In this document: piece after piece, positions 2,051 through 39,523 of the stretch
How the letters are laid out: every line of letters begins with the position of its first letter
Numbering within the stretch: the first letter of the stretch is position 1
From: Chiloscyllium plagiosum
Lineage: Eukaryota
Assembly: GCF_004010195.1 (NCBI RefSeq)
Contig: NC_057754.1
Location: forward strand, 7,300,871 to 7,351,386
Length of the DNA: 50,516 nucleotides
Reading direction: 5' to 3'
The notes under the pieces: model-generated
What the model was told of the DNA's origin: nothing
The model's database searches: none
What the model saw: the letters and a program-made list of their open reading frames with translations, nothing else
Position numbers and translations under genes: made by a program

Positions 2051-2144
2051 ATGGGCTGAAGGTCCTCTTTGGTTGCTGTGTGATTCTATGAGCTTCTCCA
2101 TGAGAAATGAACACAGAACAGAAGTGGTCATAAATGCAGTCAGT

Positions 2145-2150
2145 TTTATT
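2145..2150 (-). promoter_or_regulatory. Candidate polyadenylation signal (AATAAA) of the defensin-like exon
   Basis: tttatt on +, about 85 nt downstream of the stop codon at 2234-2236 on the minus strand. Confidence 0.5.
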
Positions 2151-2233
2151 CCCACCAGTGCAGGGAGCTGCTAATTGACAGTGACACATTCGAGGAGGAA
2201 CTGCATTTCTCATCAAGCAGAGCTTTGTGCTGG

Positions 2234-2361
2234 TCACTGTTGCCCAATGGGCTTGCAGCACTTAAAGATGTAGATACACTTCCCATTCATTTAAATATCA
2301 TTCTCTGTACACAGTCTCAGCCTGCAGCTCCCATTGTCTTTGCCACAGTTGAAGGGTAGAC
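2234..2361 (-). pseudogene. Beta-defensin-like mature-peptide exon with one in-frame stop
   Basis: Acceptor ctctccctctcttttaaaccAG| then phase-1 frame xLPFNCGKDNGSCRLRLCTENDI*MNGKCIYIFKCCKPIGQQ*. Pattern C-x6-C-x4-C-x10-C-x5-CC with two GxC motifs; TAA at 2291-2293. Confidence 0.75.
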
Positions 2362-2667
2362 CTGGTTTAAAAGAGAGGGAGAGATCACAGAATGACAGAC
2401 ATTGGGACACAGAAGGAGACTGATCCACCCATCGTGCCTGTGTTCTGGTTCAATTCCCTCTAGCCAATCTCTTGTCTTCCCCTCCTAACATTGCACACAC
2501 CTTCTATCCCAATGGTTCCCTTGAATTCCTTCCTCATTAATGCTCAGAATTCACCTTTGAGCCTCCCCACAGAAGGACATATCTGTGGGGTAGTCTTTTT
2601 CAACTCCTCCCCTCATTATGTGGAGACCAACATCCTGCATCGTAGCAATGAAGTCCCTATTACCAGG

Positions 2668-3315
2668 ATCCTGGCATTGGAGGCAGCCCACAGAAGGATT
2701 ACCAAGGTTGATCTGAGGTAGGGAGGGACTGCCTTATGAGAAGATGAGTAGGGCTGTGCCTGTACTCTATGAACATGGATTGCTTTGGTATGAGGAGTCA
2801 CAAATATGCTGAACATTGTGGAATCATTGGCAAACACCCCAACTTCTAACATTATGACGGTCACCAGGCTGATCCCAAGAATGAAGCAACTGTCTTATGA
2901 GAAGAGGTTGAGTAGGGTTAGGCCTGTATTCATTGGAGTTTAGAATAATGAGATGATGCCTTATTGAAACTTAGAAGATTCTTAAGGACTTGGCAAGGTA
3001 AATATGGAAAGGTTGTTTCCCCTGTGGGTGAGTCTAGGACCAGAGGTCAATGTGTTAGGATAAGGGGTCGCCCATTTGAGAGAGAGATGAAGAGGAATTT
3101 CTTCTCTCGGAGGGTAGTGATTCTGTAGCATTCTTTGCTACAGAGGGTTGTGACTTATTAAAATAGATTTTTAATTAATAAAGAGAGGAATGGTCATGGG
3201 GTAAAGGCAGGAAAGTAGAAATGAGGATGATCAGATCAGTCAGATTTCATTGAATGGCAGTGAAGATTCAATGGACTGAATAGTCTATTTCTACTGTTCC
3301 CTCTTATGGTCTTGT
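2668..3315 (+). mobile_element. CR1 3' fragments including 3' UTR, with a short minus-strand LINE piece at about 2771-2858
   Basis: LSYEKRLSR..., RRNFFSRRVV, and the tail ctatttctactgttccctcttatggtctt. Confidence 0.75.
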
Positions 3316-3724
3316 GGATAGAACATGAAAATGAAATGTCCTGCAATGTCTCGCATATTAACTACAGCAAAGGAAATTGAGCTCTCAATGAGACCCATCA
3401 TCAGATACTGGAGATATGAGCTGAGCACTGTTCAAGTGTTTGGTTTGAAGGATAGACAGTGAGGATGGGAAGATCACGGGATGGAATTCAACTGCTGAAA
3501 AAATGTTGGCCTATGATGGTTCACATCACTTGCAGGTCTCCAGATCCTGAGAGGCACAGATCCTGATAAGTGTTTTCAGACAATGAGAGATACTAAGGGA
3601 CTGAGAAATCAGAGGGAATTCCGGCATGTGACATAATAAAGCTGAGATATCACAGCCAAACAATTGTGGAATAGCAGAGCAGTTGAGAAGGCTGAACGGT
3701 CGCTAAATACGATGGTGATAGATA

Positions 3725-3835
3725 TCTGAAACAGACGCTGACGGAGAGACTCAGCAGGTTTGACAGCATCTGCACAAAGACAGAGAGAAAACAGAGCTCA
3801 CGTTTCCAATCCGCTCTTACACTTCTTCAGAATTT
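3725..3835 (-). mobile_element. Degenerate PLE-derived short repeat with decayed hammerhead
   Basis: Reverse complement: attCTGAAGAag...gGAAACGTgagctctg...gatgctgtcaaacctgctgag. Confidence 0.45.
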
Positions 3836-4264
3836 CTTCAAAAATGGAACTGAATGGGAGGGTTGTTTGGGGCTTGTTACAATCTCCCATCGAGATGTTT
3901 GTAGATGTGGCTGCACACATTTTGACTGTTGTTGGCTGAGGTGGGAATGGAACCTCTGAAATTCTGGTCCTGAATTTCTGCTGCACTACACTGCAGGATC
4001 CCATGGAACAGAAGAGACTCCCTGAAGGGGCAGACAACAGCCTTACCTGGTCCTGGGAAGTTTGTGGCATTGATTCTAGCCCCCGCCTCATCGCTTCAGT
4101 TCTGGATTCAGGCTGGATTTGAACTCCCATCCTCAAAACGTTACCTGGGGTTCGAGAATAACAGTCCAAAAATAACACCACCGCAGTAATCAAATCCCAT
4201 TCTAATCCTATTTTTAAGCACTTGGCCCATGGCTGTGCCTGCTTTGACATTGCAAAGCCACATT

Positions 4265-4720
4265 GAGAATACAGAACAGCATATCAGAAGACAAGGCCAT
4301 TCAGCCCACCATGTCTGTGCTGACTATGATGCCATTCTAGTCTAATCCCATTTGCCTGCTCATAGTCTGCATCCATCTATTCACTGCCTGTTCAGAGAGA
4401 TTTTTAATCAGGAGTGAATTGAGGGTTATGGGGAAACGGCAGGAGAGTGGGTTTGATGATGATCAGATCGGCTATAATCTCATTGAGTGGTGAGCAGTCT
4501 CAATGGGCACTCTGTCTATTGTGAAAATGTCCTCTTTGAGATAGGGAGACCAAAACTACACACAATAACGCAGGGCTGATCTCATCAACTTCTTGTATAA
4601 CGTCAGTAAGGCACCACGAATCTGAACTCGAATCCTGTTGCAATGAAGGCCAACATACCATTTGTCTTCCCCATGGCTGGCTGCGAGTCAGACAGTGAGT
4701 AAACTGTTGGTTCACAATGA
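4265..4720. mobile_element. Patchwork of CR1 3' fragments in both orientations
   Basis: ggccattcagccc (3' UTR, -), gagggttatgggga...gatcagatc (+), gggagaccaaaactacacacaata (-). Confidence 0.6.
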
Positions 4721-4860
4721 GTGAAAAATTCCAAGCAGCTTAAGAAAGAGGCTCAGACAAGACGACGACTGGTTCTGCTTCAGAAGTAAGTATTGAAGAA
4801 AACAACAGCAGCTCATAAGAAATGTATAACCATTGGGAGCCAGCTGGTGGTGGTTAAATC

Positions 4861-4927
4861 GGAGGGTCAGGCAGCATCAAAGGAACAGGAGAATCGATGT
4901 TTCGGGCATAAGCCCTTCTTCAGGAAT
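4861..4927 (-). mobile_element. PLE pseudo-LTR fragment with hammerhead (family A)
   Basis: Reverse complement: ttcCTGAAGA A GGGC ttat GCCC GAAAcaTC gattctcc. Confidence 0.75.
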
Positions 4928-4929
4928 AC

Positions 4930-5710
4930 AAACAGTTATCGAGAGATATTGATAGTTTATGTCAGTGGGCATAATATTGACAAATGGTGTACGTTGTGGG
5001 CAGATATGAAGTTGATCACCTTGGAAGAGAGAACAAAAGAACAGAATATTATGTAAATGGAGAAAGCTGCTACACAAAGGAACTTGGGGGAACACGAAAC
5101 ACAGGAACAGCAGGTAATCAGGAAGGGCAATGGAATGTTGGCCCTTATTTCAAGTGGAATGCAGTACAAGAGTAGGGAAATCTTACTGTAACTGAACAAG
5201 ATGCTGGTGAGACCACACCTGGAGGACTGTTTTGGTCAGTTATGGCTCCCTTATTTAAGGAAACACATCAATTTTTTGAGGGCAGATCAGTGAAGGTATA
5301 TTGGGAAGATTATTGATAAGGAGGGATTGTCTTTGGAGCAAAGGTTAAAGCTGTTGGAACTCTACTCACTGAAGTTTAGAAGAATGAGAGGCGATCTTAC
5401 ATGAAATATACAGGATTCTTAAGGGGCTTGACAGGGTGAATGCTGAGAGGATCAGAGAATCAGAATAAAGGAACTCTAAAACTGAGATGAGGAGGAATTT
5501 GTTTCTCAGATTTGCAATATTTGGAATTATTTTCCACAAAGGGTTGTGGGGGGACACAATCTTGTGTATATTTAAAGCTGAGATAGATCGATTCTTCATT
5601 GGTCAGGGAATCAAGGGTTACAGAGAAAGGGCAGGAGAGTGAATGCGAGGAATGTTGAATATCAGAGCAGATTCAAGAGGCCTAATCCTCGTCCTATTAC
5701 TTATGGTCTT
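4930..5710 (+). mobile_element. Degraded CR1 ORF2 3' end and 3' UTR
   Basis: gctggtgagaccacacctggag (LVRPHLE), gagatgaggaggaatttg, and the tail cctattacttatggtctt. Confidence 0.75.
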
Positions 5711-6730
5711 TATCTCAGCTGGTACCTTTGAACCTTTATTGTTGGCATCGTTGACAATCCAGCCACCCGACCCGAACATCGGTACAACAGCAATGATGTG
5801 AAGATGGAAGGCTGAAAGACTGCTTGCAAATGTGATACATAGGAATAGGACACGTAGAGCCAATGGAAAATAATTGAGAAACAGTAGAGATCGTTGGGAA
5901 ATGCTGAGAAGGGAAAAATGCAGGGAGAGAGCAAGAGATCAGAGAGAGAGAGAGAATAATCAGGTAGAAGCAGCAAGATAGACAAGCAGATAGAAACAAA
6001 ATGGAAGATGAGGTGGTGTGGGAAATGTAGAGTGAGCTGCTGAGAGGGAGACAAATCAGGAAAGGTGCGAAATCAAAGGAAATAACTGACAGCACCTTCC
6101 AGAATCCCAGGATGTCTTAGACTGCTGGACAGACATGTTAATGACTAATGAGGACTGTCACTGTTGTAACTAGGGAGACAAGGCAGCCAATTAGCATGCA
6201 GTCAGCTCCCAATGTTCACAGCAAGGTATCAGCTTGTCTTATCAAGGGGTAAAGATTGGAGCTATGTATCTCTCAAGGTTTGCTTCCAAGAAGTGTTTGC
6301 GTTTGGAGGGATGCAGGCACTGGAGGAGGTAGAGGTCCACCAATGGGAACTGGGAGAAGGCTGAGTTGGAGAATGAGGCAACTTGTTTTCAGGTTTGGTT
6401 CACTAAAAGCTGCCCTGTGAAGGGCAGCTAGAAGCTCACTCAGTCGTGCCATACACCGTTTGAAGTAGATATGTAATCGGAAAGGATTGTCACAATTGGG
6501 AAAAGAGAAGCAATCATGTAGGCATAATCTGCCAGCCTCTTTCAAAGATCCAAACACATCATTTTCTGCAGAATTGCAATGGGTTTAAATACGGATTGTT
6601 GCTGCTTTCCGTCCAAGCCAATGAGAATCTCAATAAACAGCAGCTACTCTTAATTCAATGCTGTCTCCCATTTTAAAGTTGGTTTTCTACTTCCTGGGTC
6701 TGATGAGGAAATGTGGGAGATGAATCCATA

Positions 6731-7052
6731 GGGCAGTACAGTGGCTCAGTGGTTAGTATTACTGCCTCAAGCACTAGGCACCCAGGTTTGATTCACCATC
6801 GGGTGTTTGTCTGTGTGGAATTTGCACATTGTCCCCATGTCTGTGTGTTTCTTTTAGGTGCTCTAGTATCCTCCCATATTCAAAAAATTTGCAGGTTAGG
6901 TGAATTAGCCATGCTAGATTGTTCATCGTATTCAGGGATCTGTGGATTAGGTATATTAGTCATGAGAAAATAGAGGGCAGGGAAGTGGACCTGGGTGGGT
7001 TGCTCTTCAGAGGGTTGTGTGGATGTGTTTCCACACTGTAGGGATTCTGTGA
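6731..7052 (+). mobile_element. Old HE1/V-SINE
   Basis: tRNA-like head gtggctcagtggttag, V-domain tgtgtggaatttgcacattgtcccc, CR1-like tail tgtttccacactgtagggattct. Confidence 0.85.
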
Positions 7053-7709
7053 TATTTACTGGATTAAAGGTTGGAACAATTCCATGGCACCAGAAGATCC
7101 CTCAGTAGCTTGCCTGTTATTGTTACATTTTTAAGAGTAACCCAATGGGTGAGAATCAGCTGGAGACTAATCTCTCCTTAGGGATATAAGAGCAGACTAA
7201 AAGTCTGGAGGTGGACACAATTGACAGAAACACTTTCATTTTGGGGTGCGAGGGAAAGCAATCTTTGATAACTTTGGACAGTTGATCGGTCTGTTAAATA
7301 TTTGCCTCTAACACGGACCTCACCAGACTCTTGGCTCCATTCAGTCTTTCAGAGTTCAACAAATGTTGCATTGTACNNNNNNNNNNNNNNNNNNNNNNNN
7401 NNNNNNNNNNNNNNNNNNNNNNNNNNNNNNNNNNNNNNNNNNNNNNNNNNNNNNNNNNNNNNNNNNNNNNNNNNNNNNNNNNNNNNNNNNNNNNNNNNNN
7501 NNNNNNNNNNNNNNNNNNNNNNNNNNNNNNNNNNNNNNNNNNNNNNNNNNNNNNNNNNNNNNNNNNNNNNNNNNNNNNNNNNNNNNNNNNNNNNNNNNNN
7601 NNNNNNNNNNNNNNNNNNNNNNNNNNNNNNNNNNNNNNNNNNNNNNNNNNNNNNNNNNNNNNNNNNNNNNNNNNNNNNNNNNNNNNNNNNNNNNNNNNNN
7701 NNNNNNNNN

Positions 7710-8745
7710 GTGTTTAGGTTTCCTTAGGTTGGTGATGTCATTTCACGTTCTTTTTCTCAGAGGGTGATAGATGGGGTCCAAATCGATTTGCTTGATATAG
7801 CTCCAGTTGGAATGCCATGCTTAAAGGAATTCTCATGTGTGACTCTGCTTGGCTTGTTCAAGGATGGATGTGTTGTCCCAATCAAAGTGGTATGCTTCCT
7901 CATCTGTATGTAAGGATACTAGTGATAATAGGTCATGCTTTTTTTGTGGCTAGTCGATATTCATGTATCTTGGCGCCTAGTTTTCTGTCTGTTTGTCCAA
8001 TGTACTGTTTGCTACATTTCTTGCAAGGTAATTTGTAAATGACGTTCATTTTGCTTGTTGTCTGTATACGATGTACGGGAGAGTGATGTCGGGGAGACAA
8101 GCAGACAAAATATGCCCAGAAATCCTCTCCACTCTTCCTTACATCAAAGACATCTTGGAAATGACTGCCAAACTACTCAAACCTCTTGGCATCATGGTAA
8201 CCCACAAACCTACCAACACACTAAAACAGCAGCTAATGAACTTGAAAGCCCCTATACAGACAACAAGCATTATGTGTGTCATTTACAAAATATCTTGCAA
8301 GAACTGCAACAAACACTACATTGGACAAACCAGCAGAAAACTAGGCACCAGGATACATGTATATCAACTAGCCACAAAAAGACATGACCTACTGTCACTA
8401 GTATCCTTACATACAGAGGAGTAAGGATGCCACTTTGACTGGGACAACACATCCATCGTAGGACAAGCCAAATACAGACACACATGAGAATTCCAAGAAG
8501 CATGGCATTCCAACTGGAACTCTAACAACAAACACATTGATTTGGATCCCATCTACCACCCTTTGAGAAAAAAAACATGAAACGGTGTCACCAATACAGG
8601 AAAATGACATCACCAACACAAGGAAACGTAAACGCCTAAATAGAAAGTGGGACATAACATCAGCACTTCACCAGATAATGTTACCTAATACGGTGACAAA
8701 ACATCTGAAAATGAGCCTTCCAGCTCAGCGAGCAAACTTACGTGT
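7710..8745. mobile_element. Penelope/Poseidon-type PLE 3' end with GIY-YIG endonuclease, partly present as an inverted duplicate
   Basis: + strand 8119-8570 encodes LPYIKDILEMTAKLLKPLGI...VIYKISCKNCNKHYIGQTSRKLGTRI..., FDWDNTSI. 7710-8070 is a reverse-complement copy. Decayed family-C hammerhead at about 8668-8708. Confidence 0.85.
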
Positions 8746-8785
8746 CGACATTATATTGTCAACATTGTATTCATGTAGATTGTGG

Positions 8786-8936
8786 AGGAAGTGAGGACTG
8801 CCGATGCTGGAGATCAGAAACAAGAGTGTGGAACTGGCGAAGCACAGACTTCATCAGGCTTATGCCTGAAATGTCAATTCTCCTGCCCCTTGGATGCTGC
8901 CTGACCTGCTGGGCTTTTCCAGCACCACACTCTCGA
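8786..8936. mobile_element. Short two-part inverted PLE family-A insertion
   Basis: gaggaagtgaggactgccgatgctggagatcag (tail, -) joined to ggcttatgcctgaaatgtcaattctcctg...ccagcaccacactc (+). Confidence 0.7.
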
Positions 8937-8937
8937 G

Positions 8938-9225
8938 GTTGTGTCATTGTGTCTTATTGTGTGTATGAGTGTGATTGTGCATGTGAATGTTTGTTACTTT
9001 GTGTATCCATTTGTGCATGGTGTTTGTCTGTGAGTGAGTGTGTGTGTATGAGAGTGTACATGTGAGAAAGTGTCCGTATGAATATGTGTGTAAATGTGTG
9101 ATTGTGAGTGTGTGTATATACATATGCACCTGGCTGTATACATTGTCTGTGCAACAGTGAGAGTGTGTATCTCTCTGGTTGTTTAATGACATGTTGCTGT
9201 GTCTGTGTGAATCTGTGTCTGTTAC
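8938..9225. repeat. Degenerate (TG)n low-complexity tract
   Basis: Dense gtgt/tgtg repeats. Confidence 0.85.
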
Positions 9226-9388
9226 TGTTTGACCCCTTCACGTGTGCATCACGGATTCAGTCTCTGCTGGAGTGTTATAATTATTAACTGCAGGACAGTC
9301 TGTTCTATCATATAAGGAGCTTCCATCCTCCAGGCAACTCAGAGTTCAGCAGAAAGTCAGCAAAAGATAAGAACTGTTCTGTTCTTAG

Positions 9389-10089
9389 TGTTATGACATG
9401 GGGTGAACCCTCCTGCTTAATTTAAAACCAGCAACACAGAAAAGATTTATCCCGTGTAGTAATCTGTAAAAATTAGAGTGGCTAAGAACAACGTAAAGTA
9501 AAAATTAACAACTTTATTTCTTAAAGTATAACAGAGAATAATTAACTGACTACTATTTACAATTTATTTCTCTAACCTATCTTTTACCTTCCCTTCTATA
9601 ATACTAGTCTAATAAAACTCCCAATTAAGATTTACAAGACAACACTTCTTATCTCAAAACCAAGTAGCTGTAGGTCCTTGTCTTTGGATCTTACTATGTC
9701 TTCTTTTCTCCTTGTTAGGAATTTCTGCATCACAGCTTACTGATTGAAAAGGTACTTTTAAGAGAGAGCTATTTTCAAGCAGCCCGTTTACATGCTGGGC
9801 CGTGGCAGTTCTCCTCTCAACTGTTCAATTTTCCCCGGATTTATACTCCAGAGCATCGGAATGTGTCATTGGCTTTTAAGATTGTCAATATATTCAATTC
9901 AAACTTGATTGGAGTTTGATATTTCAGGTATAATTTAAACTGTTTGGCCAGATTCGAATTTGTCTTTCTCTCCAGGAAATGAACTACTCAAGTGTTACAT
10001 GCATCATTGCCTTATTGAGAACACTTAGTGCTGTCTGGTAGTTCTGCTGCTTTTAACTCTCTTAAAGGTGTATCCACATCTTCATAACA
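9389..10089. mobile_element. Solo LTR (Gypsy-type), 701 bp
   Basis: Termini TGTTATGA...TCATAACA form an 8-bp inverted repeat with TG..CA ends, flanked by a 4-bp TSD TTAG (9385-9388 and 10090-10093). Confidence 0.8.
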
Positions 10090-10769
10090 TTAGATATTTG
10101 GGACCTGGTGATGATGCAGCCAGACACTGCTGATGAATCTGTGAAACAACACCTTTCCTTTAAAGATGAGTCCATCTCTCCTCAAACAGCCTTCACACAC
10201 ATTCAGAAGGGCACATTAAATTCATTATTCCCCTGAAGATCAAGTTCCATTCGACTTGCTTTTGCTGACAAGAGTCTAAAATCAATCAGTTGTTATGTAT
10301 AATAATTGTTTGTGTAATGCAAAGCTAACATTTATTGTCCAACTTTTATTGCCTAGGGGTCATTTATGCCCAGGAATGAGCTACATTACTTTGAATCTGG
10401 ACTCACATATAAATCAGATCTGGGTGAGAACAGTGGGTTTCCTTCCCTAAAGGACATTAATGAAGGAGATAGCTCCTCGTTTCATCCTGCTCCTCCCCCA
10501 ACCTGATTATCAACAGCATTTATATATTTGACATTAGTCTTTGTAATCACTATATTTCAGTCTCATGCTCCCAAGCACACCCGGAGTTCATCTGCCTTAC
10601 CTGCCGGCCTCTTTGATGGTAATAAATGCAGTTTTATTTATCAGTCCTACGTCATCCTCTGCTTTACTTGTGCCTGCCTTAACTGTTTGACTTGCTGTTT
10701 TGCCCAACTGCACCAGTCTCCAAGTGATGTTTTTTCTCACTATCTCCTTGAGTCCCACTCCCCCTTCCT

Positions 10770-11880
10770 CTTAGTTTAAATCCTTCTGAGCAGCTCTGGC
10801 AAATCCCCCAACAGGAAATTAGGCAGGACCTTAAAAAGTATGTCCTCAAGAGTAGTAATACCTGGATTATGCCTGGTGACACGAGCAATTCCGGTGCAAT
10901 CCATCCTTCTTTTAGAGGTCACTTCTACCCAGACGATATTCCAATGACTTCTTCTCCCCTGCACCAGCTCTTCAGCCACGTAGTCATCTATCCTCCTATT
11001 CCTACTCTCACTAGCTTGTAGAATTGGGAATAATACAGATATTACTACCCTTGAGGACCTATTATTTTAAGCTGCTGCCTAACTTCCTGTATTCTGTCTT
11101 GAGAACATTATCCTTTTCTTTTCCTATGTCCTTGGATCCAATGTGTACAACAACCTCCTCCCCTTTGAGAACATTCTGCGCCGAGATATCCTTGACCCTG
11201 GCACCCAAGAGGCAAGATACCGTTCTGATATCTCACTGCCGGCAACAGAAACGTCTGTCTGTGCATCAGAGTAGAGAATACTCTATCACAGTCGATCGCT
11301 TGGAATCTGACGTATCCTTTGTTACATTAGAGTCAGTCTTGGTACCATAAACCTGGTTGTCAGTGCTACATTCCCCCGAGAGTCCCTCACCCCCTAGTTT
11401 TTCCAAAACAGCATCCCTGCTTTAGATGGGGATAGCCACAGGAGACTTCTGCAAAACCTGCCTCCGTTTACTACCTTTCCTGGAGGAACCCCATCAACCT
11501 CAAGCGACTGACTGTGTGGAGTTTGCACGTTCTCCCCGTGTCTGCGTGGGTTTCCTCCGGGTGCTCCGGTTTCCTCCCACAGTCCAAAGATGTGCAGGTC
11601 AGGTGAATTGGCCATGCTAAATTGCCCGTAGTGTTAGGTAAGGGGTAAATGTAGGGGTATGGGTGGGTTGCGCTTCGGCGGGTCGGTGTGGACATGTTGG
11701 GCCGAAGAGCCTGTTTCCAGACTGTAATGTAATGTAATCTAATCTAACCTGGCTGGATCTTCAGTTTATCTCTCTTCCTGCAACTGCCATCCATCACATC
11801 CCTTAGCTCCGGTTAATTCCATTTACCCTCTAACTGCTGGTCCAACCTAATCATGTAATCTGATAGGATTTGCATACAAA
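10770..11880 (-). mobile_element. CR1 ORF1 (SGNH esterase) fragment, interrupted by a SINE and containing a short inverted piece
   Basis: Minus translation includes CLLGARVKDISAQNVLKGEEVVVHIGSKDIGKEK. 10812-10890 is a plus-orientation copy of the same ORF1 segment. Confidence 0.75.
11499..11747 (+). mobile_element. Young 5'-truncated HE1/V-SINE
   Basis: Near-consensus V domain (tgtgtggagtttgcacgttctccccgtgtctgcgtgggtttcctccgggtgc) and a (taatg/taatc)n tail. Confidence 0.92.
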
Positions 11881-12289
11881 ACACACTGAGTCACCACATA
11901 AACCCTGCTTCCATTACAGCTGCATAATAAAGGATGTGATAAATTCTAAAAGATATTTACACCATCATGAAGAATTGCTTCCTTCTGCAAAACAGCTCCG
12001 AAATCCCTGCTTCAGCTCATGATTGGTGAAACATTCATTCCATTGTTACCTCGGCATGCTTGTATTCCAGTGCCATATCAGGATTATAAATTCTATGCAT
12101 TTATTTGGTCCAAATTTCTTACTTCCTCCTGGTTTGCATATCCCAACAAATCTCAATATTCCCTGAACATCTGGTGACTGCAAAAACCAACACAGGCACG
12201 TTGTCCTCTAAATTCTCGATTGTCAACTCTCACTCGTGTATTCAAAATGTTCCATGTTCATCCACTGATTTCTTTACTTTTTTGGACTG

Positions 12290-12853
12290 GTGTGATTGTA
12301 CAAGACTTTAGTTCGGCTGCATTTAGAATACTGTTTACAGTTCTGGTCGCCATATTACCAAAGGATGTGGACGCTTTGGAGAGGGTGCAGAGAAGGTTTA
12401 CGAGGATGTTGTCTGGTGGAAGGTGCTAGCTATAAAGAGAGGTTGAGTAGGTTAGGGTTGTTTTCATTAGAAAAAAGGAGATTGAGGGGGCAGCTGACTG
12501 AGGTCTACAAAATCATGAAGGGTATAGACAGGATAGATAGAGATAAGTTTTTTCCAAGGGTGAGGCATTCAATAACGAAAAGGTGAGAGCAAAAATGTTT
12601 AAGGAGGACACACACGGAAAGTACTTTACACAGAAGGTGTAGGTTGCCTGGAATGCATTGCCAGCAGAGGTAGTAGAGTCAGGCATGGTAGATTCATTTA
12701 AGATGTGCCTAGACAGATGCATGAGTAAGTGGGGAGCAGAGGGATACAGATCCTTAGGAATTGGATGATAGGTTTACACTGGATTTAGATCAGCACAGGC
12801 TTGAAGGGCTAAAAGACTTGTTCCTGGGCTGTAAGTTTTCTTTGTTCTTTGTT
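12290..12853 (+). mobile_element. CR1 3' end
   Basis: YKTLVRLHLEYCLQFWSPYY..DVDALERVQRRFTRM..SYKERLSRLGLFSLEKRRLRG; tail (ttctttg)n. Confidence 0.92.
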
Positions 12854-13270
12854 CCCCATTCCACCCAAAAGCTCAGTCAGTGCATGAGGAAAGATTTTAG
12901 ATGAACCTTTCAAACTTCACCATCTACTGTCTGATCACCTTGCTGATGGTCCTTTCATATTATTTGAAAAGTAAAGCAGTTTTGATCTTCTGTCTGATCA
13001 CATTCACTCCTGGATACATCAGACAGAGACACGGTCAGTGCAGTGACCTTGCCTTCCCTGTGTTTACTCATTCAGCCTCATGCCTCAGACGAAGCCAGTT
13101 TACAAAATGATTGCGATGTCTGATCTCTCTCTGTGATGTACACAGTGGGGTCACACCTGTTCTGTGAGGCCATAGTTTTGACCTGTCCAGTTCAAGGGGC
13201 CTCACTGCGATCAAACAGGGAGTTACCAAAACCTTCACTTTTCATAGTCTACAATGTGTTGATATTCCAG

Positions 13271-13679
13271 TGTTATGGACCTGGCCAGACCTCCTTAAAC
13301 CATATTAAGAAGGTAGGCCCCAGACCTTAACTTTCTTTTAGGCAGATGTACAGTGCATATTCCAGGAGTGATACAGCTGGTCAAACCACTCAGCTTTAAA
13401 AAAAGAGTTTATTTAAACATCATGGATGAAACACGAACAGGAGAAAATAGAACTTAGAATAACGTATTTGAAAACCCACCCAACACGATATCACAACTGA
13501 ATAAAGCTGTTCCAATCTCTACAACATCCAATAATCACAGCCCTTGACAAAAGGTAAAGTCAAATAAGGTTCTTACAGGCAGGATAAGATTCTGAGGGAA
13601 AGTTCAAACATTTAAAGTCATACCGGAATCTCTGCTTTCACGTCTCCTCTTGTAAAAAAAAAATCAAGGACAACATAAC
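13271..13679. mobile_element. Probable degraded solo LTR
   Basis: Starts TGTTATGG and ends ACATAAC. Flanks ccag/cttg give only an imperfect TSD. Confidence 0.45.
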
Positions 13680-13894
13680 CTTGTTGAAGGAGCAGCATCA
13701 TTATACCAGACTGCACAAAGCAGTTCCAGACATAGATGGTATGGTGTATGTGGGACGAGAAGTGATGGAATTGCCTTGATCCTTTGTGTCTTCTCTTGGT
13801 AGTACCCAGTATTTATCACTATTGACCATTCACTGGTGATCAACAAGGGCTGGGAGAAGCTGTTTAGTGAGGGAGCTGAGAATTTGCATCAGTT

Positions 13895-14610
13895 ACCATC
13901 CCTTCATATCTCTGTAATCTCTCTAGCGCAAACACACCTATCTCTAAAATTCTCCACTTCCTATTCCCCTCCCTATTTCTGTAAATTTGTCCAGCTCCTA
14001 CACCTCTCCCTACCTCTGTAACCTTCTCAAGCATATACTCCCCTCCAAACCTCACAACCTCCTGTAGTCCTGACACCCATCCTGACCTCTAAATTTCTCC
14101 AGCCCTGACACTCTTCCATATCTCTGTATCCTCCTGGCCCCTACACTTGAACATATCTCTGCAACTTCCTGAGACAAAAATGGAAATTTCTGGAAAAGCT
14201 CAGCAGGTCTGGCAGCAACTGTGGAGTGAAATCAGGGTTAATGTTTCAGGTTGAGCGGCCCTTCCCCAAAACTGTAACCTCCTTCGGGCCCAGCACTCTG
14301 AACTATTTCTGTATCTTCCTCCAGCAAGTACAAACACAACCAATGTCTGTACCATCCTCCAGGACCTGCATGCCTCCCTTATCTCTGTGACTGCCTCCAG
14401 GACCTGCATGCCTCCCTTATCTCTGTGACCTTCTCCAGGGCCTGCATCCCTCCCTTATCCCTGTGACCTCCCCCAGGACCTGCACCCCTCCCTTATCTGC
14501 GTGACCTCCTCCAGGACCTGCATGCCTCCCTTATCTCTGTGACTGCCTCCAGGACCTGAACTCTAAACTATCTGTGTAACCTCTCCACAGCCAACAAAAC
14601 CCTCCATGAC
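13895..14610 (+). repeat. Degenerate tandem array with a young 38-bp core (about 14357-14560)
   Basis: Unit cctccaggacctgcatgcctcccttatctctgtgactg; older copies ccctatttctgtaa/cctacctctgtaacc lie upstream. Interrupted at about 14175-14265 by a PLE-derived short repeat. Confidence 0.75.
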
Positions 14611-14624
14611 CTCTGATAAACTCA

Positions 14625-15665
14625 GTGTCACAAAGCACAGAAACCGACCCTTCAGTCCAACCAGTCCATGCTGACCATAGGAAAAAGTGAGAACGGCAGA
14701 TGCTGGAGATCAGAGTAGAGTGTGTGGTGCTTGGAAAGCACAGCAGGTCAGGCAGCTTCTGAGGAGCAGGAGAATCAGGCATAAGCCCTTCATCCGGAAT
14801 GGTACTGAATGTGGTCTAGCGTCTACGCGGGATCAGTCGATTCTGTAGACAGGCACTGAGAAAGGAGATGTGGCTGTGGTAGCAAGTCTGCTTCAGGACG
14901 TGGCTGAAGAGCTTCAGGGCAGAGCAGATGACCTGGGGGCAGTGGTGAGAGACAAAGATTCACTAAGAACGTTGTAGAGAGAGGACAGCTTCTTCAAGGT
15001 AGGCATCCTTGGAAGAGGCTTCGCTGTAAGGTTAAAACCAACTAGGAGAAAGTGAGGACTGCAAATGCTGGAGATCAGTGTCGAGAGTGTGGTGCTGGTA
15101 AAGCACAGCAGATCAGGCAGCATCCAAGCAGCAGGAGAATTGACACTTCAGGCATAAGCCCTTCATCAGGAACCAGCATTGTCCCAAACTAAACTCGCCT
15201 CACCATCCTGCGCTTGGCCCGTATCTCTTCAAACATTTCTTATTCATGTTATTATTTAAATGCCTTTTAAACATTGTAACTGCACCAGCATCCATCGCTT
15301 CCTCTGGAAGTTCATTCCATATAAAAATCATTCTCTGTGTAAAAAAATTGCCTCTCGTGTCTTTTTTAAAATCTTTCTCCTCTCATCTTAAAAATATGTC
15401 CCATAGTCTTGAAATCACTCACCCAAAGGAAAAGATGACTGCTATTCACCTTACTCTATATGGCTCATTACTTTAAAAATCTCAGTAAGGTCACTTCCTA
15501 CACTCCAGTGAGAAAAGTCCAAGCTTATCTAGCCTCTCCTTGTAACTCAAACCCTCCATTGTCAGCAACATCCTGATGAAGCTCTTCTGAACTCTGTCTA
15601 ACTTAATAATATCCTACCTATAACAGGGTGCCCAGAACTGAACGCAGTCCTCCAGAAGAGGCCTC
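14625..15665 (-). mobile_element. CR1 3' end split by a PLE insertion
   Basis: gcacagaaaccgacccttcagtccaaccagtccatgctgacca (3' UTR) resumes at about 15175 and runs to cagaactgaacgcagt (VQFW). Confidence 0.8.
14680..15172 (-). mobile_element. Neptune-type PLE: pseudo-LTR, ORF N-terminus and a second pseudo-LTR
   Basis: Minus strand: decayed hammerhead/tail at 15045-15172, then ATG at about 15007 (MPTLKKLSS... and, after a frameshift, LKLFSHVLKQTCYHSHISFLSACLQNRLIP), then a second tail at 14680-14800. Confidence 0.75.
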
Positions 15666-15669
15666 ATCG

Positions 15670-17518
15670 GCCTTCAGGAATGTAGAAGGGCTCATGCCAG
15701 AAACGTCGATTCTCCTGCTCCTTGGATGCTGCCTGACCTGCTGCGTTTTTCCAGCAACACATTTTCAGCTCTTAACCACCATACTTGCAGCCATGCGCCG
15801 CTACCTACATTCCCTGCAATTAGACCTACCCCAGCTCAGGACTACACTCTCACAGACCTGCAAAGGACCTCTACTGTTCTTCATCCACAGAAGAATCCAT
15901 ACAGTAAATAAACAGTTCTTCCTAGCCATATCGGAAATTAAAGACAGTAAGTACCAAAACCTTTCATGTACTTACCCCCACACTCTGGGTTCCTCAACTG
16001 TTCCAGAATCTTCCATCGGCCTCCGAAATCGTTCTGGCGCCATTAACCACGCGTCTGCTACATCGCCCATCGCAGCCTCCGCGATCGCCGCCCAGACAAC
16101 CGCCTCCGCGATCGCTGCCCAGACAACTACCTCCACGATCGCCAGGAAGACCATCGCCGACAGATTCGCGGCCCCTGCGGCTATCGGGAATAACACTGTC
16201 TCGGTCGTCGCCACAGCCACTTCCGCCCCCAGTGACATCANNNNNNNNNNNNNNNNNNNNNNNNNNNNNNNNNNNNNNNNNNNNNNNNNNNNNNNNNNNN
16301 NNNNNNNNNNNNNNNNNNNNNNNNNNNNNNNNNNNNNNNNNNNNNNNNNNNNNNNNNNNNNNNNNNNNNNNNNNNNNNNNNNNNNNNNNNNNNNNNNNNN
16401 NNNNNNNNNNNNNNNNNNNNNNNNNNNNNNNNNNNNNNNNNNNNNNNNNNNNNNNNNNNNNNNNNNNNNNNNNNNNNNNNNNNNNNNNNNNNNNNNNNNN
16501 NNNNNNNNNNNNNNNNNNNNNNNNNNNNNNNNNNNNNNNNNNNNNNNNNNNNNNNNNNNNNNNNNNNNNNNNNNNNNNNNNNNNNNNNNNNNNNNNNNNN
16601 NNNNNNNNNNNNNNNNNNNNNNNNNNNNNNNNNNNNNNNNNNNNNNNNNNNNNATCACCTCAAGGGATCTCCCATCCACCGCCTCCAACCTCATAGTCCC
16701 ACAACCCCACACTGCCCGTTTCTACCTCCTGCCCAAAATCAACAAACCTGACTACCCCGGCCGACCCATTGTCTCAGCCTGCTCCTGCCCCACTGAAGTC
16801 ATCTCTGCATACCTCGACATGGTCTGTCCACCTTAGTCCAAGAACTCCCCACCTACGTTCGGGACACCACCCACGCCCTCCACCTCCTCCATTATTTTTC
16901 TCTTCCCCGGTCCCCAACGCCTTATTTTCACCATGGACATCCAATTATTGTACACCTCCATCCCCCATCACGAAGGACTTAGAGCCCTCCGCTTCTTTCT
17001 TTTCCGCCATACCAACCAGTACCCTTCCACCAACACCCTCCTTCGACTGACTGAACTGGTCCTCACCCTGAACAACTTCTCTTTCGAATCCTCCCACTTC
17101 CTCCAAACCCCAAAGGAATAGCCATGGGCACCCGCATGGGCCCCAGCTATGCCTGCCTCTTCATAGGATATATGGAGCAGTCCATCTTCCGCAGCTACAC
17201 TGGCACCACCCCCCACCTTTTCCTCTGCTACATCAATGACTGTATTGGTGCTACCTCGTTCTCCCACTTTACCAACTCCTTCCACCCTGACCTCAAATTC
17301 ACCTGGACCGTCTCAGACTCCTCCCTCCCCTTCCTAGACCTTTCCATTTCTATCTCGAGTGACCGAATCGACACGGACATCTACTATAAACCGACCGACT
17401 CCGACAGCTACCTAGACCACACCTCCTCCCACCCTGCCCCCTGTAAAAACGCCGTCCCATATTCCCAATTCCTTCGTCTCCGCCGCATCTGCTCCCAGGA
17501 GGACCAGTTCCAAAACCG
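15670..17518 (+). mobile_element. Neptune-type Penelope-like element, reverse transcriptase (frameshifted, gapped)
   Basis: [65 protein letters not shown] (YIDD), LPFLDL, YYKPTD..SYL..TSSHP, PYSQFLRLRRICS. Preceded by a family-A tail at 15670-15770; 27-bp repeat (IAAQTTASA) at about 16068-16140. Confidence 0.92.
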
Positions 17519-17775
17519 NNNNNNNNNNNNNNNNNNNNNNNNNNNNNNNNNNNNNNNNNNNNNNNNNNNNNNNNNNNNNNNNNNNNNNNNNNNNNNNNNN
17601 NNNNNNNNNNNNNNNNNNNNNNNNNNNNNNNNNNNNNNNNNNNNNNNNNNNNNNNNNNNNNNNNNNNNNNNNNNNNNNNNNNNNNNNNNNNNNNNNNNNN
17701 NNNNNNNNNNNNNNNNNNNNNNNNNNNNNNNNNNNNNNNNNNNNNNNNNNNNNNNNNNNNNNNNNNNNNNNNNNN

Positions 17776-20101: not shown

Positions 20102-21369
20102 NNNNNNNNNNNNNNNNNNNNNNNNNNNNNNNNNNNNNNNNNNNNNNNNNNNNNNNNNNNNNNNNNNNNNNNNNNNNNNNNNNNNNNNNNNNNNNNNNNN
20201 NNNNNNNNNNNNNNNNNNNNNNNNNNNNNNNNNNNNNNNNNNNNNNNNNNNNNNNNNNNNNNNNNNNNNNNNNNNNNNNNNNNNNNNNNNNNNNNNNNNN
20301 NNNNNNNNNNNNNNNNNNNNNNNNNNNNNNNNNNNNNNNNNNNNNNNNNNNNNNNNNNNNNNNNNNNNNNNNNNNNNNNNNNNNNNNNNNNNNNNNNNNN
20401 NNNNNNNNNNNNNNNNNNNNNNNNNNNNNNNNNNNNNNNNNNNNNNNNNNNNNNNNNNNNNNNNNNNNNNNNNNNNNNNNNNNNNNNNNNNNNNNNNNNN
20501 NNNNNNNNNNNNNNNNNNNNNNNNNNNNNNNNNNNNNNNNNNNNNNNNNNNNNNNNNNNNNNNNNNNNNNNNNNNNNNNNNNNNNNNNNNNNNNNNNNNN
20601 NTACTAGTTCTGATTTCTTATCATATACACACTGTCAGCATTCTGTTTCATATTAGCAACAAAAAGCAAAATACCAGATGCTGGAAATTTGACATATAAA
20701 CAGGTAATTCTGAACAAACTCATTTACCAGCTCCTCACTTCCAACCTATCCCTTTTCTTTTTCCATTCCCTTCCCTGCTTTTTTTGTCACATCCCAGTTT
20801 TGATGATAATTTATTAACCTCTTATTTCACATTTTCAGTGTCTGCAGTTTTTTTTTACAACAATGCATGACACGTCCAAACAAAACTGAATCGTGAATCA
20901 CTAAACCATGGGTCGGATGCTCATTTGTTTATAACTCTCTTGAGATCACTACAGGAGAAGCAACAATGGTTAGGATTCTGCGGGCAGTCAACTCAAGTAT
21001 TGGGACCAGAGAGGGTTGGTGTTCTGGATGTAATAGGAAACAAAGAAATGTTCAGAGACATCCTTGCCAAAGGTTGACAGCTCAGGAGCACAGAGAGGGA
21101 TGGGGTAAATTGCCTTGGTGTAGCGCCTGGTTTGTTGCTGTCACTTACTGACTATGTAATGGAAACAGTGTTACCTCCACCCTGCTACAGGACAGCAGAA
21201 GTTCCAGGAAGATATCCAATCCTGCAAAGACGCTGAAATTTTTAGAGCTAAGATGGAGAGAGAGCTTATGAGAAGTGTAAGGGTAAGTGATCCTAGGAGG
21301 CGAAAGAAGGAAGAGGATAGAATGGTCTGTTTCTGTGCTCTGACTCTGACAGGCTGAGCTTGAGTTTTA

Positions 21370-22205
21370 AATGTGTTGCTGGAAAAGCGCAGCAGGTCAG
21401 GCAGCATCCAAGGGGCAGGAGAATCGACGTTTCGGGCATGAGCCCTTCTTCAGGAATGAGGGAAGTGTGTCCAGCAGGCTAAGATAAAATGTAGGCAGGA
21501 GGGACTTGGGGGAGGGGCGTGGAAGGAGGTCAAGGTGAGGGTGATAGGCCGGAGTGGGGGTGGGGGCGGAGANNNNNNNNNNNNNNNNNNNNNNNNNNNN
21601 NNNNNNNNNNNNNNNNNNNNNNNNNNNNNNNNNNNNNNNNNNNNNNNNNNNNNNNNNNNNNNNNNNNNNNNNNNNNNNNNNNNNNNNNNNNNNNNNNNNN
21701 NNNNNNNNNNNNNNNNNNNNNNNNNNNNNNNNNNNNNNNNNNNNNNNNNNNNNNNNNNNNNNNNNNNNNNNNNNNNNNNNNNNNNNNNNNNNNNNNNNNN
21801 NNNNNNNNNNNNNNNNNNNNNNNNNNNNNNNNNNNNNNNNNNNNNNNNNNNNNNNNNNNNNNNNNNNNNNNNNNNNNNNNNNNNNNNNNNNNNNNNNNNN
21901 NNNNNNNNNNNNNNNNNNNNNNNNNNNNNNNNNNNNNNNNNNNNNNNNNNNNNNNNNNNNNNNNNNNNNNNNNNNNNNNNNNNNNNNNNNNNNNNNNNNN
22001 NNNNNNNNNNNNNNNNNNNNNNNNNNNNNNNNNNNNNNNNNNNNNNNNNNNNNNNNNNNNNNNNNNNNNNNNNNNNNNNNNNNNNNNNNNNNNNNNNNNN
22101 NNNNNNNNNNNNNNNNNNNNNNNNNNNNNNNNNNNNNNNNNNNNNNGTCTTTGAAGAAGGAGGCCATCTGGATTGTACGGTATTGGAACTGGTCCTCCTG
22201 GGAGC
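21370..22205 (-). mobile_element. Neptune-type PLE 3' part with pseudo-LTR (gap in the middle)
   Basis: 22147-22205 encodes SQEDQFQYRTIQMASFFKD, continuing the RT seen near 17500; 21370-21572 is the family-A terminus. Confidence 0.85.
21422..21457 (-). ncRNA. Minimal type-I hammerhead ribozyme, family A, intact core
   Basis: attc CUGAAGA A GGGC-ucau-GCCC GAAA CG UC gauu; palindromic ACGU replaces stem III; stem I is imperfect. Confidence 0.7.
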
Positions 22206-24494: not shown

Positions 24495-25350
24495 AGCAAG
24501 GCATTTGATAAGGTTCCCCATGGAAGGCTCATTCAGAAGGTCAGGAGGAATGGGATACAGAATTGGCTGGCCAACAGAAGACAGCGAGTGGTAGTAGAAG
24601 GAAAATATTCTGCCTGGAAGTCAGTGGTGAGTGGTGTTCCACAGGGCTCTGTCCTTGGGCCTCTACTGTTTGTAATTTTTATTAATGACTTGGATGAGGG
24701 GATTGAAGGATGGGTCAGCAAGTTTGCAGACAACACAAANNNNNNNNNNNNNNNNNNNNNNNNNNNNNNNNNNNNNNNNNNNNNNNNNNNNNNNNNNNNN
24801 NNNNNNNNNNNNNNNNNNNNNNNNNNNNNNNNNCGCACTTGGAATACTGTGTCCAGTTCTGGTCGCCCTATTATAGGAAAGATGTGGATGCTTCAGAGAG
24901 GATTCAGAGGAGGTTTTCCAGGATGCTGCCTGGACTGGAGGGCTTATCTTATGAAGAGAGGTTGACTGAGCTCGGACTTTTTTCATTGGAGAAAGGGAGG
25001 AGGAGAGGGGACCAAATTGAGGTATACAAGATAATGAGAGGCATAGATAGAGTCGATAGCCAGAGACTATTTCCCAGGGCAGAAATGGCTAACACGAGGG
25101 GTCATAGTTTTAAGCTGGTTGGAGGAAAGTATAGAGGGGATGTCAGAGGCGGGTTCTTTACACAGAGAATTATGAGAGCATGGAATGCGTTGCCAGCAGC
25201 AGTTGTGGAAACAAGGTCATTGGGGACATTTAAGAGACTGCTGGACACAGAAATTTGAGGGTGCATACATGAGGATCAATGGTCGGCACAACATCGTGGG
25301 CTAAAGGGCCTGTTCTGTGCTGTACTGTTGTATGCTCTTCTATGCTCTAT
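24495..25350 (+). mobile_element. CR1 RT and 3' end
   Basis: [11 protein letters not shown]..., [46 protein letters not shown]; tail (ctatg)-like. Confidence 0.93.
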
Positions 25351-26592: not shown

Positions 26593-29500
26593 AACAACTG
26601 TTTATTCCTGTCTGGCACAAAAGCAAAATGGATGACAGCCAATCTACGGCTCAGAGACAGTATCTGATCCAAAGAAGAAACTGGCAGATTGGCCAAGAAA
26701 AATAATCGGTCTGAGGTTTGGGAGCAGTTTAGAATTCAGCAAAGAAGGGCCAAGGGATTGATTAGGAAGGGGAAAATATAATACAAAAGTAAGCCTGCAG
26801 GGAACATAAAGACTGACAGAAAGAGTTTCTATAGGTACGTGAAGAGAAAGAGATTGGTGAAGACAAATGTAGGTCCCGTACAGATAGAAGTGGGGGATTG
26901 TATAATAGATGACAAAGAAATGGCTGTGCAAATGAATACATACTTTGGTTCTATCTTCATACAAGAGGACACAAATCATATAGCCAGAAATGTTGGAGAA
27001 TGAAAGATTTTAATGAGAGGGAAGAACTGAGGGAGATCAATATTAGTACAGAAACGGTGCTGGGAAAATTGATGGGGTTGAAGGCAGATAAATCACCAGG
27101 GCCTGATAATCTACATCCCAGAGTATTTAAGGAAGTGGCTCTAGAAATAGTGGATGCATTTGTGGTCATCTTCCAGGATTCTATAGACTCTAGAAGAGTC
27201 CCTGCGGATTGGAGAGTAGCTAATGTCACTCCAATACTCCAAAAGGGAGATAAAGAGAAAACAGAGAATTACAGACCAGTAAGCCAGTAGTTCGGTAGTG
27301 GGGACAATTTTCATTATCAAGGACTTTATAGCAGAGCATTTAGAAAGCAGTGGCAGGATCAGACAGAGTCAACATGGATTTACGAAGGGGAAATCATGCT
27401 TGACAAATCTGTTGGGATTCTATGAAGATGTAACTAGTAGAGTTGACAAGGGGGAACCAGTTGATGTGGTATATTTGGATTTTCAGAAAGCATTTGACAA
27501 AGTGCGGCATAAGGGATTATTGGGCCAGATTAAAGCACGTGGGATTGAGGGAAGTGCACTGAAAAGGAAAGAAAATTGGTTGGCAGAGAGGAAACAAAGA
27601 GTTGGAATTAATGGGTCCTTTACAAATAGATGGGCAATAACTAGTGGGGTGCCACAGGGATCAGTGCTGGGTGCCCAGCTATTCACAGTATATATTAATG
27701 GATAGAATTAAGAATTCTAATAGAATTTGGATGAGGCAATAGAATGTAACATCTCAAAGTGGGAGGGGTGAACAGTGATGAAGATGCAGAGAGCCTTCAG
27801 CATGATCTGGACAGGTTGGGTGAGTGGGCACATCAATGGCAGGTGCAGCAAAATTTGGATAAATGTGAGGTTATTCACTTTGGAAGCAAAAACAGGAAGG
27901 CAGATTACTACCTGACAGGCTGTACATTGGGAGAGGGGAGTGTGCCGTGGGACCTGGGTGTCCCTGTGCACCGTCGCTGAAGGTAAGCATGCAGGTGCAG
28001 CGGGCGGTAAAGAAGGTAAATGGTATGTTGGCCTTCACTGTGAGAGGTTTCGAGTGCAGGAGCAGGGATGTGTTGTTGCAGTTATACAGGGCCTTGGTGA
28101 GGCCACATCTAGAATATTGTATGTAGTTTTGGTCTCCTTTTCTGAGGGAGGATACTCTTGCTCTCGAGTAAGTGCAGTGAGGGTTTCCCAGGCTGATCCC
28201 GGGAATGGCGGGACCGACGTATGAGGAGAGATTGATGAGGTTAGGATTGTTTTTACTGGAGTCCAGATGAATGAGGGGGATCTCACAGAGACTTATAAAA
28301 TTCTAACAGGACCAGTCAGGGTAGATGCAGGGAGGATGTTCCTGATGGTGAGTGTGTCCAGAACAGGGGTCACAGTCTGAGGATTTGGGATAGACCATTT
28401 AGGACAGAGATGAAGAGACATTTCTTCACCCAAAGAGGGGTGAGCCTGTGGAACTCAGTGCCACAGGAAGGAGTTGATGCCAAAACATTGAGTGTATTCA
28501 AGAGGCAGCTAGATTTCGCACTTGGGGCAAATGGGGTCAAAGGTTATTGGGAGAAAGCAGGATTAGGCTATTGAGTTGACAGAGCAGGCTCGAAGGGCGG
28601 AATGGCCTCCTCCCCCTGCTCCTATCTTCTATGTTTCTATATTTCACTTGTACGTTGTACTGAGGGATAACTAGAGATTATGATCTTTTGAGGCCTGATT
28701 TCTGGCCTCCTCCCTCGCTTCCCTAAACCTTCCTCCTTCCACCAATCTGGTCAATATCAATATGGACCATGATTTCTGGTAGCTCACCCTCCCCCTAATC
28801 CTGAATGAATGAGCTTGTGTAGATGGTCACTGGTAACAATGGGTGTGAAGGTTGGGTTTCTGCACTGAGAGGCAGTGATCTGTCACTCCAGAAAAATACC
28901 AGGGGCAGCAACGTGGAGAAGTGGCAAGGGTGCAGATAAGCTAACTGGTCATGTCAACAGATAGAGCAGAAGCAAAGGATAGCACCGATGGTGCTAGTGG
29001 GGGGAGGGGAAATAGATTTAGTAGGAATCGTGTTTGATGCTGTTCCCTCAGTTACCTAAGAAGATTTTACCTTGATCCAGTTTAGGAACTAATTTTCCAA
29101 CGACCTGGCACATATTTACCACACCATTTTCCAGCAATTAGCCAAACTTGGCGTACCATCAGTAACGTCTTGCTGCACACACTCATGCACCTGGGCGTTC
29201 TGGTTCTCCAGAGCTCTGTAACTGTGCATTGACTCAAATATTTTTATTTTTTTAATCTAGAAACGAGCAAAGACATCTACCCAAGCTGAAGGTGAAACCA
29301 CCCTGCAGCCTGGCTCATGGGCTTCAGGTTGGTACACTCTCCTTAGGCCAGGAGGATTACTTGATGTTCACAGCAGACAATGCACAATTTGGTTCCATAA
29401 TTTAGGGGCCTTCTAAGCAACAACATTCTCCAAGCCCATTGAGGTAACTCTTCCACTAAAATGGCAGGCAAAGGTTGTGAGAAACATTACAGCATTGCAA

Positions 29501-39379: not shown

Positions 39380-39523
39380 TGTATTTGGCCTGTAGGACTC
39401 TTGCCCACATTGCTTTGCTTTGATTATTGCATTGAAAACAGGGGTGTTTCCCCTTGACAGACCCAAGACAAGCTCAAAGAGCTGGAATAATCTCCAGAGC
39501 TGTGATGAGCCTCTCTCCGGCTG

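Follow-up and report, generated by a model that had tools for sequence, protein, structure and literature searches.

A probable beta-defensin pseudogene whose second exon appears to be reused as the last exon of a transposon-started non-coding RNA

The window, meaning here the whole stretch of 50,516 bases that was analysed, is part of contig C45 of an assembly of 3.56 Gb in 101,977 contigs. On its minus strand it carries an exon with six cysteine codons, bounded by a splice acceptor on one side and a polyadenylation signal on the other (Table 1). Read from 2359, the codons are LPFNCGKDNGSCRLRLCTENDI, TAA (2293-2291), MNGKCIYIFKCCKPIGQQ and TGA (2236-2234), and they are preceded by G(2361) and T(2360), the two split-codon bases that open the exon and place the intron in phase 1. 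The acceptor sits 14 nt ahead of the first cysteine (AG|GT CTA...) and is kept in all seven family copies compared. The original prediction had described a phase-1 frame behind a pyrimidine-rich acceptor on this strand, interrupted by a TAA, and the sequence reads exactly as claimed on both points. The AATAAA that it placed about 85 nt after the stop was found 84 nt past the TGA and is used in a polyadenylated contig of sequencing run X1; the same place is occupied by AATAAA in a related gene on contig C101976.

Table 1. Positions of the exons, introns, signals and lesions at the locus, in window coordinates.
Feature	Position	Strand	Remarks
Terminal exon, 3' untranslated part	2125..2233	minus	AATAAA at 2150-2145, poly(A) addition site 2125
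Cysteine-motif exon, probable beta-defensin pseudogene	2234..2361	minus	2 nt of split codon, 41 codons and TGA; six Cys codons
Premature TAA, between Cys3 and Cys4	2291..2293	minus	GAA (Glu) in 6/6 close intact paralogues
Splice acceptor, AG at 2363-2362 and pyrimidine-rich tract ...ctctcttttaaaccAG	2362..2385	minus	intron phase 1
Intron, 1685 nt	2362..4046	minus	X1 joint, "skips 1685, CT..AC (cut +2)"
Deletion scar, signal-peptide exon and proximal promoter gone	3868..3947	minus	79 nt here, 386 nt in the C101976 gene
Internal exon A, 98 nt	4047..4144	minus	acceptor AG 4146-4145, donor CAG|GTAAGG 4046-4041
Intron, about 11.8 kb	4145..15975	minus	X1 loose end at 4145
Upstream exon	15976..16240	minus	high-copy, retroelement-derived; run of N from 16241 hides the 5' end

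Elsewhere in the window, a long tandem array on the plus strand (34059-39450) has all three forward frames open for up to 929 codons, with successive ORF starts 304 nt apart from 37134 to 38958. Fragments of mobile-element proteins lie at 7933-8172 (minus), 27283-27702 (plus) and 43211-43543 (plus). The ORF at 27283-27702 is of CR1 reverse-transcriptase type, with PF00078-like clusters, and its top named identities are to Callorhinchus milii (62-66%), Hypanus sabinus (66%) and Pristis pectinata (62%), with birds and turtles at 44-58%. These identities agree with the shark origin guessed in the original prediction, as indirect support short of proof. One mobile-element ORF reads ...VIYKLPCKKCSKQYIGQT..., which may be GIY-YIG/Penelope-like, and one reads ...YIRTAPYHPSSNGKAERVV..., presumably an integrase-like sequence. 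About 60 nt at 4865-4927 reach a summed contig depth of 440,000-865,000 in DNA-type runs, which points to an extremely abundant short repeat; this was the only examined part with many raw single-cell RNA reads, and its motif (…GCTGGAAAAGCGCAGCAGGTCAGGCAGCATC…) is also present downstream of the C101976 defensin gene. Nine runs of N account for 2,818 bases (229-728, 7377-7709, 16241-16653, 17519-17775, 20102-20601, 21573-22146, 24740-24833, 30154-30207 and 31166-31258).

The cysteines of the exon are spaced C-x6-C-x4-C-x10-C-x5-CC, with the stop counted as one position, and a GSC is present. Compared with the beta-defensin pattern C-x5-6-C-x3-4-C-x9-13-C-x4-7-CC with Gly two residues before Cys2, the exon agrees in both the spacing and the glycine. 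When all six frames of the whole window were scanned with a loose six-cysteine pattern there were two matches only, the second of which is a low-complexity stretch of Cys and Val at 9111-9200. A profile made from paralogues alone (alignment A4, 15 peptides, with the window copy left out) matched the exon with E = 4e-15 and 50 bits, and the same profile searched against the whole window found no defensin exon besides that at 2234-2361. The match of the cysteine exon is far beyond chance.

The window exon has close relatives in its own genome. A six-frame search of the assembly with the window peptide (tblastn) gave 42 matches from 43 candidates, of which 19 had E < 1e-3, the window itself included. 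Twenty loci were fetched, and among them were seven distinct exons with six cysteines and no stop (one on C101976, five on C46 and one on C43), while twelve further loci had lost cysteines or contained stops. The closest relatives of the window exon are on contigs C101976 and C46, and its amino-acid identity to the intact C101976 paralogue is 68% (E = 3.6e-13). The homology among the copies spans about 1.8 kb, running through the intron and the 3' flank. When the own genome was searched at the DNA level with the exon and its flanks, 21 first-look candidates came up and 23 places matched, with identities of 67-74%. Homology of this length at only 23 genomic places indicates a duplicated gene family and no transposable element; the family would be a low-copy one, spread by segmental duplication.

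These counts also bear on the idea that the cysteine pattern arose by chance or is a fragment inside a transposable element, an idea that the setting invites, because the window consists mostly of repeats, the exon is flanked by LINE-tail repeat copies at 1773-2051 and 2770-3044, and the window peptide has no Pfam match. Against it stand the strength of the paralogue profile match, the course of the homology through intron and 3' flank, as in duplicated genes, and the 21-23 copies at 67-74% identity, where a true repeat in the same window has 839 candidates. The original prediction had named a high-copy transposable-element match over these bases as an outcome that would speak against a defensin, and the search of the own genome gave none. 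We regard a chance or transposon origin as extremely improbable.

Several side observations concern the relatives themselves. Eight of the loci (L008, L011-L014, L016, L017 and L020, on C49, C27 and unplaced contigs) have common losses, Cys2 to Tyr and CC to YY or YD, reading ...CGKDNGSYRLRVCTENVVQTNGKCFLLLEYYKPL..., and this sub-group seems to descend from an already dead copy that was then duplicated many times. On C46, locus L003 has two intact cysteine exons on the same strand at 1513-1605 and 1896-1988 (C46:3859743 and 3860126), 383 nt apart, a very local tandem duplication.

Assignment to the beta-defensins comes through the paralogues. With X at the stop, the window peptide matched 0 families in Pfam, and a search of PDB sequences returned only chance rows of EGF/LDL-receptor-like proteins, at E >= 0.4. 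On Pfam PF00711 (Defensin_beta), which has a cut-off of 21 bits, intact paralogues reach 25.9 and 21.3 bits, and seven of the eight members of alignment A2 and six of the ten of alignment A3 match it at E <= 1. The profile check suggested with the original prediction was therefore negative for the window peptide but supports a beta-defensin identity by way of its paralogues. A ten-peptide profile drawn from several subfamilies had AvBD3 (7lzl) as its best PDB match, at E = 0.053 and with all six cysteines aligned, and eight of its nine PDB matches were defensins. The nearest ESM Atlas clusters are likewise beta-defensin (score 0.87, 187 of 256 features common).

The peptide of the C101976 paralogue was modelled with AlphaFold2 from 15 diverse alignment rows, which gave a pLDDT of 79.8, a short N-terminal helix (5-8) and three strands; a first model, made from 8 near-identical rows, had a pLDDT of 50 and was discarded. 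The first 16 rows of a Foldseek search with the retained model were all beta-defensins (among them hBD-1, AvBD3, hBD-2, crocodile CpoBD13 and bovine BNBD-12), with a TM-score of 0.72-0.79 and an rmsd of 1.7-1.8 to hBD-1 and with E >= 0.23 throughout because the domain is so small. A structure prediction had been proposed as a check, and the predicted fold of this intact paralogue does match hBD-1, AvBD3 and hBD-2. Counted from sequence, the C101976 peptide has a net charge of +1 and the window reading one of +3.

Searches of larger protein collections were negative. In a word-indexed protein search, the 47-residue read-through of locus L004 gave no candidate and the ten-row alignment A3 gave two candidates, neither of them at E <= 1. 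With the C101976 peptide as query, an exhaustive phmmer search of 1.84 billion representatives returned 0 matches at E <= 0.001, a threshold for which a query of 39 residues needs about 45 bits, and one that moderately diverged orthologues could escape. Taken together, the profile, fold and paralogue comparisons support the view that the window exon is probably a real beta-defensin exon.

The locus as it stands has neither an uninterrupted frame nor a signal-peptide exon, two further features of beta-defensin genes. As to the frame, the closest intact paralogues have GAA at the place of the TAA, so a single G-to-T change would have made the stop. The TAA is carried by both of the runs whose contigs cover base 2293, namely by the X1 contig on 2125-2366, with 0 differences from the window, and by a contig of run X2 on 2097-3019, with 1 difference, at 2610; a contig of a further run, X15 (type guessed), ends at 2292 and leaves the critical base outside. 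Because X1 and X2 come from two studies and have other SNPs relative to the assembly, they are not the assembly's own reads, which excludes an assembly error. A look at raw reads over 2291-2293 had been proposed as a check, and in the run contigs the stop stands, without a variant in X1 or X2; of the options originally offered, a single-base assembly error is thereby set aside, and a pseudogene is borne out by the GAA of the intact paralogues, the TAA of the runs and the deleted signal exon. Read-through or recoding of the TAA was also considered and is without support, and the exon upstream closes the frame anyway.

The signal-peptide exon was sought by way of the C101976 gene, where the prediction places an upstream exon, reading MVKALILLLASLMLTEAFGPDFEKELWVSVG, at 5.1 kb ahead of the cysteine exon; a phase-1 GTGAGA donor comes after it. 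The signal peptide is predicted there as MVKALILLLASLMLTEAF..., and N-terminal to its cysteine domain the predicted precursor has this signal peptide and a propiece some 14 residues long. This first exon was predicted from its ORF, its donor and its co-duplication with the cysteine exon, and we infer that it is the true exon 1 of the family. In the window the corresponding interval has shrunk: between colinear blocks, positions 4561 to 4947 of C101976 face 3947 to 3868 of the window, so that some 300 bp are gone on balance, among them the exon and a TATA-like upstream region. No exon-1-like sequence was found elsewhere in the window, whose 2,818 N could hide one, or in this part of C45. When the predicted exon 1 was used as a protein query it matched nothing but itself, and a DNA search found 39 copies in the genome.

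Of these 39 copies 20 were examined, and four have no stop between the ATG and the donor. In ten others (L028, L030-L032, L035-L037 and L040-L042) we observed a common stop at codon 7, MVKAL(I/N)*, and those copies include the ones nearest to intact-looking cysteine exons on C46; several of the intact-looking C46 exon 2 copies may thus belong to dead genes. Since most of the examined exon-1 copies are stopped, much of the subfamily would be dead too. C101976 is the only locus for which both an open exon 1 and an intact exon 2 could be shown. Coding identity of the window copy to its paralogues (74-80%) is barely higher than that of the flanks (54-76%), and dN/dS is 0.32-0.56, resting on 38 codons only; coding identity so close to flank identity, over so few codons, gives little sign of how long the gene stayed functional.

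Contigs of run X1 show the dead exon within a spliced and polyadenylated transcript. The contig on 2125-2366 is 261 nt long, has a depth of 732 against about 10 in the flanks, and opens with 19 T before 2125 on the plus strand, which is a minus-strand poly(A) tail 20 nt past the AATAAA. A second contig, at a depth of 405.7, joins 2361 to 4047 with GT..AG ends; junctions ending at 2361 were among the things that the original prediction had recommended looking for. The mean X1 depth of 207 in the 200-nt bin 4000-4199 fits a 98-nt exon at about 405. At the donor place, 4046, the C101976 paralogue reads CTAATG against GTAAGG in the window, and from this comparison the donor of exon A looks newly arisen. 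A third contig ends at 4145, and its 25-nt loose end is exactly window 15977-16001, beside GGG|GTAAGT. The RNA has at least three exons, then, running to 15976, from 4144 to 4047 and from 2361 to 2125.

The upstream exon belongs to a repeat for which 839 first-look candidates and 52 scored matches of 77-94% identity were found on many contigs. It is antisense to a retroelement's long ORF, the orientation being taken from copy L053, whose opposite strand has a 412-codon ORF and then the motif ...IKPADKGVAVVVW.... The repeat at 15940-16240 and copies L050-L054 look like the 5' part of a retroelement, and the transcript would start from its antisense strand or run through it.

Each splice junction is represented by one assembled contig from one run. 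Run X1 has no recorded library type, and its flat flank depth of about 10 could mean that DNA is mixed in; the poly(A) tail, both canonical junctions and a depth excess of 40-70-fold lead us to infer that it is RNA. A processed DNA copy as the source of these contigs is unlikely, since the assembly has no near-identical second copy. In the DNA run X2 the depth over the exon is 15.9 and the 2361|4047 joint was not found, and about 2% of the raw single-cell RNA reads of run X18 held nothing on the defensin exon.

Translated through the three exons in the defensin frame, the RNA meets three stops in exon A (TAA, TGA and TGA) and the TAA of the defensin exon, with no in-frame ATG after the stops of exon A, and the open frame of the upstream exon ends at the first codons of exon A. 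With these stops, no start and no signal peptide, the RNA is non-coding with respect to the defensin, and the transcript is presumably without function. The same features weigh against a working beta-defensin gene in which the TAA would be an assembly error or a rare null allele. Six cysteine codons, acceptor and poly(A) signal are intact and the exon is highly represented in X1, as such a gene would have it; but the TAA is present in both covering runs, the expressed contig included, the exon spliced to 2361 has three stops and no ATG in the defensin frame, and the signal exon is deleted. We hold this reading to be very improbable.

A new function, whether of a regulatory long non-coding RNA or of a small ORF, is easier to entertain and yet unlikely. 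Two small ORFs come into question, one of 18 codons (MNGKCIYIFKCCKPIGQQ) from an ATG right after the TAA and one from the retroelement exon into exon A. The depth of the spliced form in X1 (405-732 against about 10), the retention of the splice and poly(A) signals and the ATG following the TAA could all be taken in its favour. The transcript was seen in one run only, however; the small ORF has no signal peptide and three of the six cysteines, and the upstream ORF is antisense retroelement sequence that ends 94 nt before the last junction, which would normally trigger nonsense-mediated decay.

The reading that we prefer, with a probability of roughly 0.85, is that the gene was a beta-defensin gene of two exons and is now a pseudogene, with the cysteine exon as its second exon, the one for the mature peptide, reused as the terminal exon of a transposon-started non-coding RNA. 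Two lesions would have disabled the gene. One is the G-to-T change that would have turned a conserved Glu codon between Cys3 and Cys4 into TAA, and the other is a deletion of about 300 bp, some 1.5 kb upstream, that would have taken the signal-peptide exon and the promoter. The surviving acceptor and the AATAAA with its poly(A) site would then place the exon at the 3' end of an RNA that is spliced and polyadenylated, and that would come from the retroelement-derived exon at least 13.6 kb upstream and pass through the 98-nt exon with its new GTAAGG donor. The lost signal exon, this reuse and the dozens of relatives in the genome go beyond the original prediction.

Seen beside known defensins, the exon resembles vertebrate beta-defensins (human DEFB1, mallard AvBD3, crocodile CpoBD13) in the array C-x6-C-x4-C-x9/10-C-x5/6-CC with Gly-x-Cys, and in having all six cysteines in one exon, with a phase-1 intron behind a signal-peptide exon in the family. 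It differs from them in the premature stop and the missing signal exon of the window copy and in that its subfamily is weakly cationic. Human theta-defensin pseudogenes, which are still transcribed, are likewise defensin genes inactivated by a premature stop; here, unlike there, the signal exon is deleted too, and transcription comes from a retroelement-derived upstream exon. Teleost beta-defensins share with the exon the cysteine array, a low net charge and a similar (L/F)P..C-type N-terminus. Their genes have three exons with the mature peptide spread over exons 2 and 3, according to the sections of PMC8231796 used here, whereas the window exon holds six cysteines in one exon, as in mammals; the same sections describe the silencing of human theta-defensin genes by a premature stop. 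Invertebrate big defensins also have a phase-1 intron directly 5' of the cysteine-rich domain, which the relevant part of PMC7203481 uses as an argument for common ancestry with big defensins. An oyster big defensin is among the weaker Foldseek matches to the C101976 model, at ranks 26 and 36, but the predicted C101976 precursor is without the hydrophobic N-terminal domain of the big defensins.

The relatives extend well beyond the subfamily of the window exon. Leads were taken from a genome-wide scan with PF00711, whose best E-value of 0.15 is non-significant on 3.5 Gb, and the cysteine exons that they yielded differ in sequence (for example SMKYCLVQGGICRRSLCLPHEIPSSGFCEHGGFCCQRK, AIFGCDRIPGSCRQGPCRRNEYIVPNKCFWFYKCCVVR and CQAGSCRQHRCNKGEKTVPFRCFWIFKCC...). 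Among 15 family peptides the invariant columns are C, G, C, R, C, E, C and CC. An AG acceptor lies 14 nt before Cys1 in four of seven further loci and 2 nt before it in a fifth, all in phase 1. Genome searches with three subfamily peptides gave 18, 25 and 12 places at E <= 1e-3, with stops inside 1, 3 and 2 of them, respectively. Allowing for overlaps, the beta-defensin-like cysteine exons number roughly 60-70 and fall into at least four subfamilies, with contigs C49, C46 and C50 as the main sites; some loci are identical pairs on short contigs and may be haplotype duplicates. The other subfamilies are richer in Arg and Lys than that of the window and C101976.

It is conceivable, and we propose it with less than even confidence, that behind the pseudogene stands a cartilaginous fish's large and so far unannotated repertoire of beta-defensins, with all six cysteines in one phase-1 exon. 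No described relative of the family came up in the literature or protein searches. Full-text searches of the literature outside subscription journals and genome annotations gave no paper on a chondrichthyan beta-defensin, so that "undescribed" is uncertain. The part of PMC6795676 dealing with shark and skate antimicrobials names transferrin, squalamine and kenojeinin and no defensin, and beta-defensins run "teleosts to mammals" in the pertinent passage of PMC7203481. The portion of PMC8231796 on gene structure gives three exons for fish genes and two for mammalian ones, and puts forward the hypothesis of a two-exon ancestor.

Taken alone, the locus is an ordinary dead gene, one that would show how the acceptor and poly(A) signal left in a pseudogene can come to end a transposon-started RNA. 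The family outweighs the locus in importance. If it is indeed chondrichthyan and undescribed, beta-defensins would extend to the base of the jawed vertebrates. The two-exon, phase-1 structure would then be ancestral in vertebrates, as hypothesised in the cited portion of PMC8231796, and the teleost three-exon form derived; this would fix the ancestral gene structure of jawed vertebrates and bring it one step nearer to the proposed big-defensin ancestor. The family would also yield testable peptides from a lineage whose antimicrobial peptides have been little studied.
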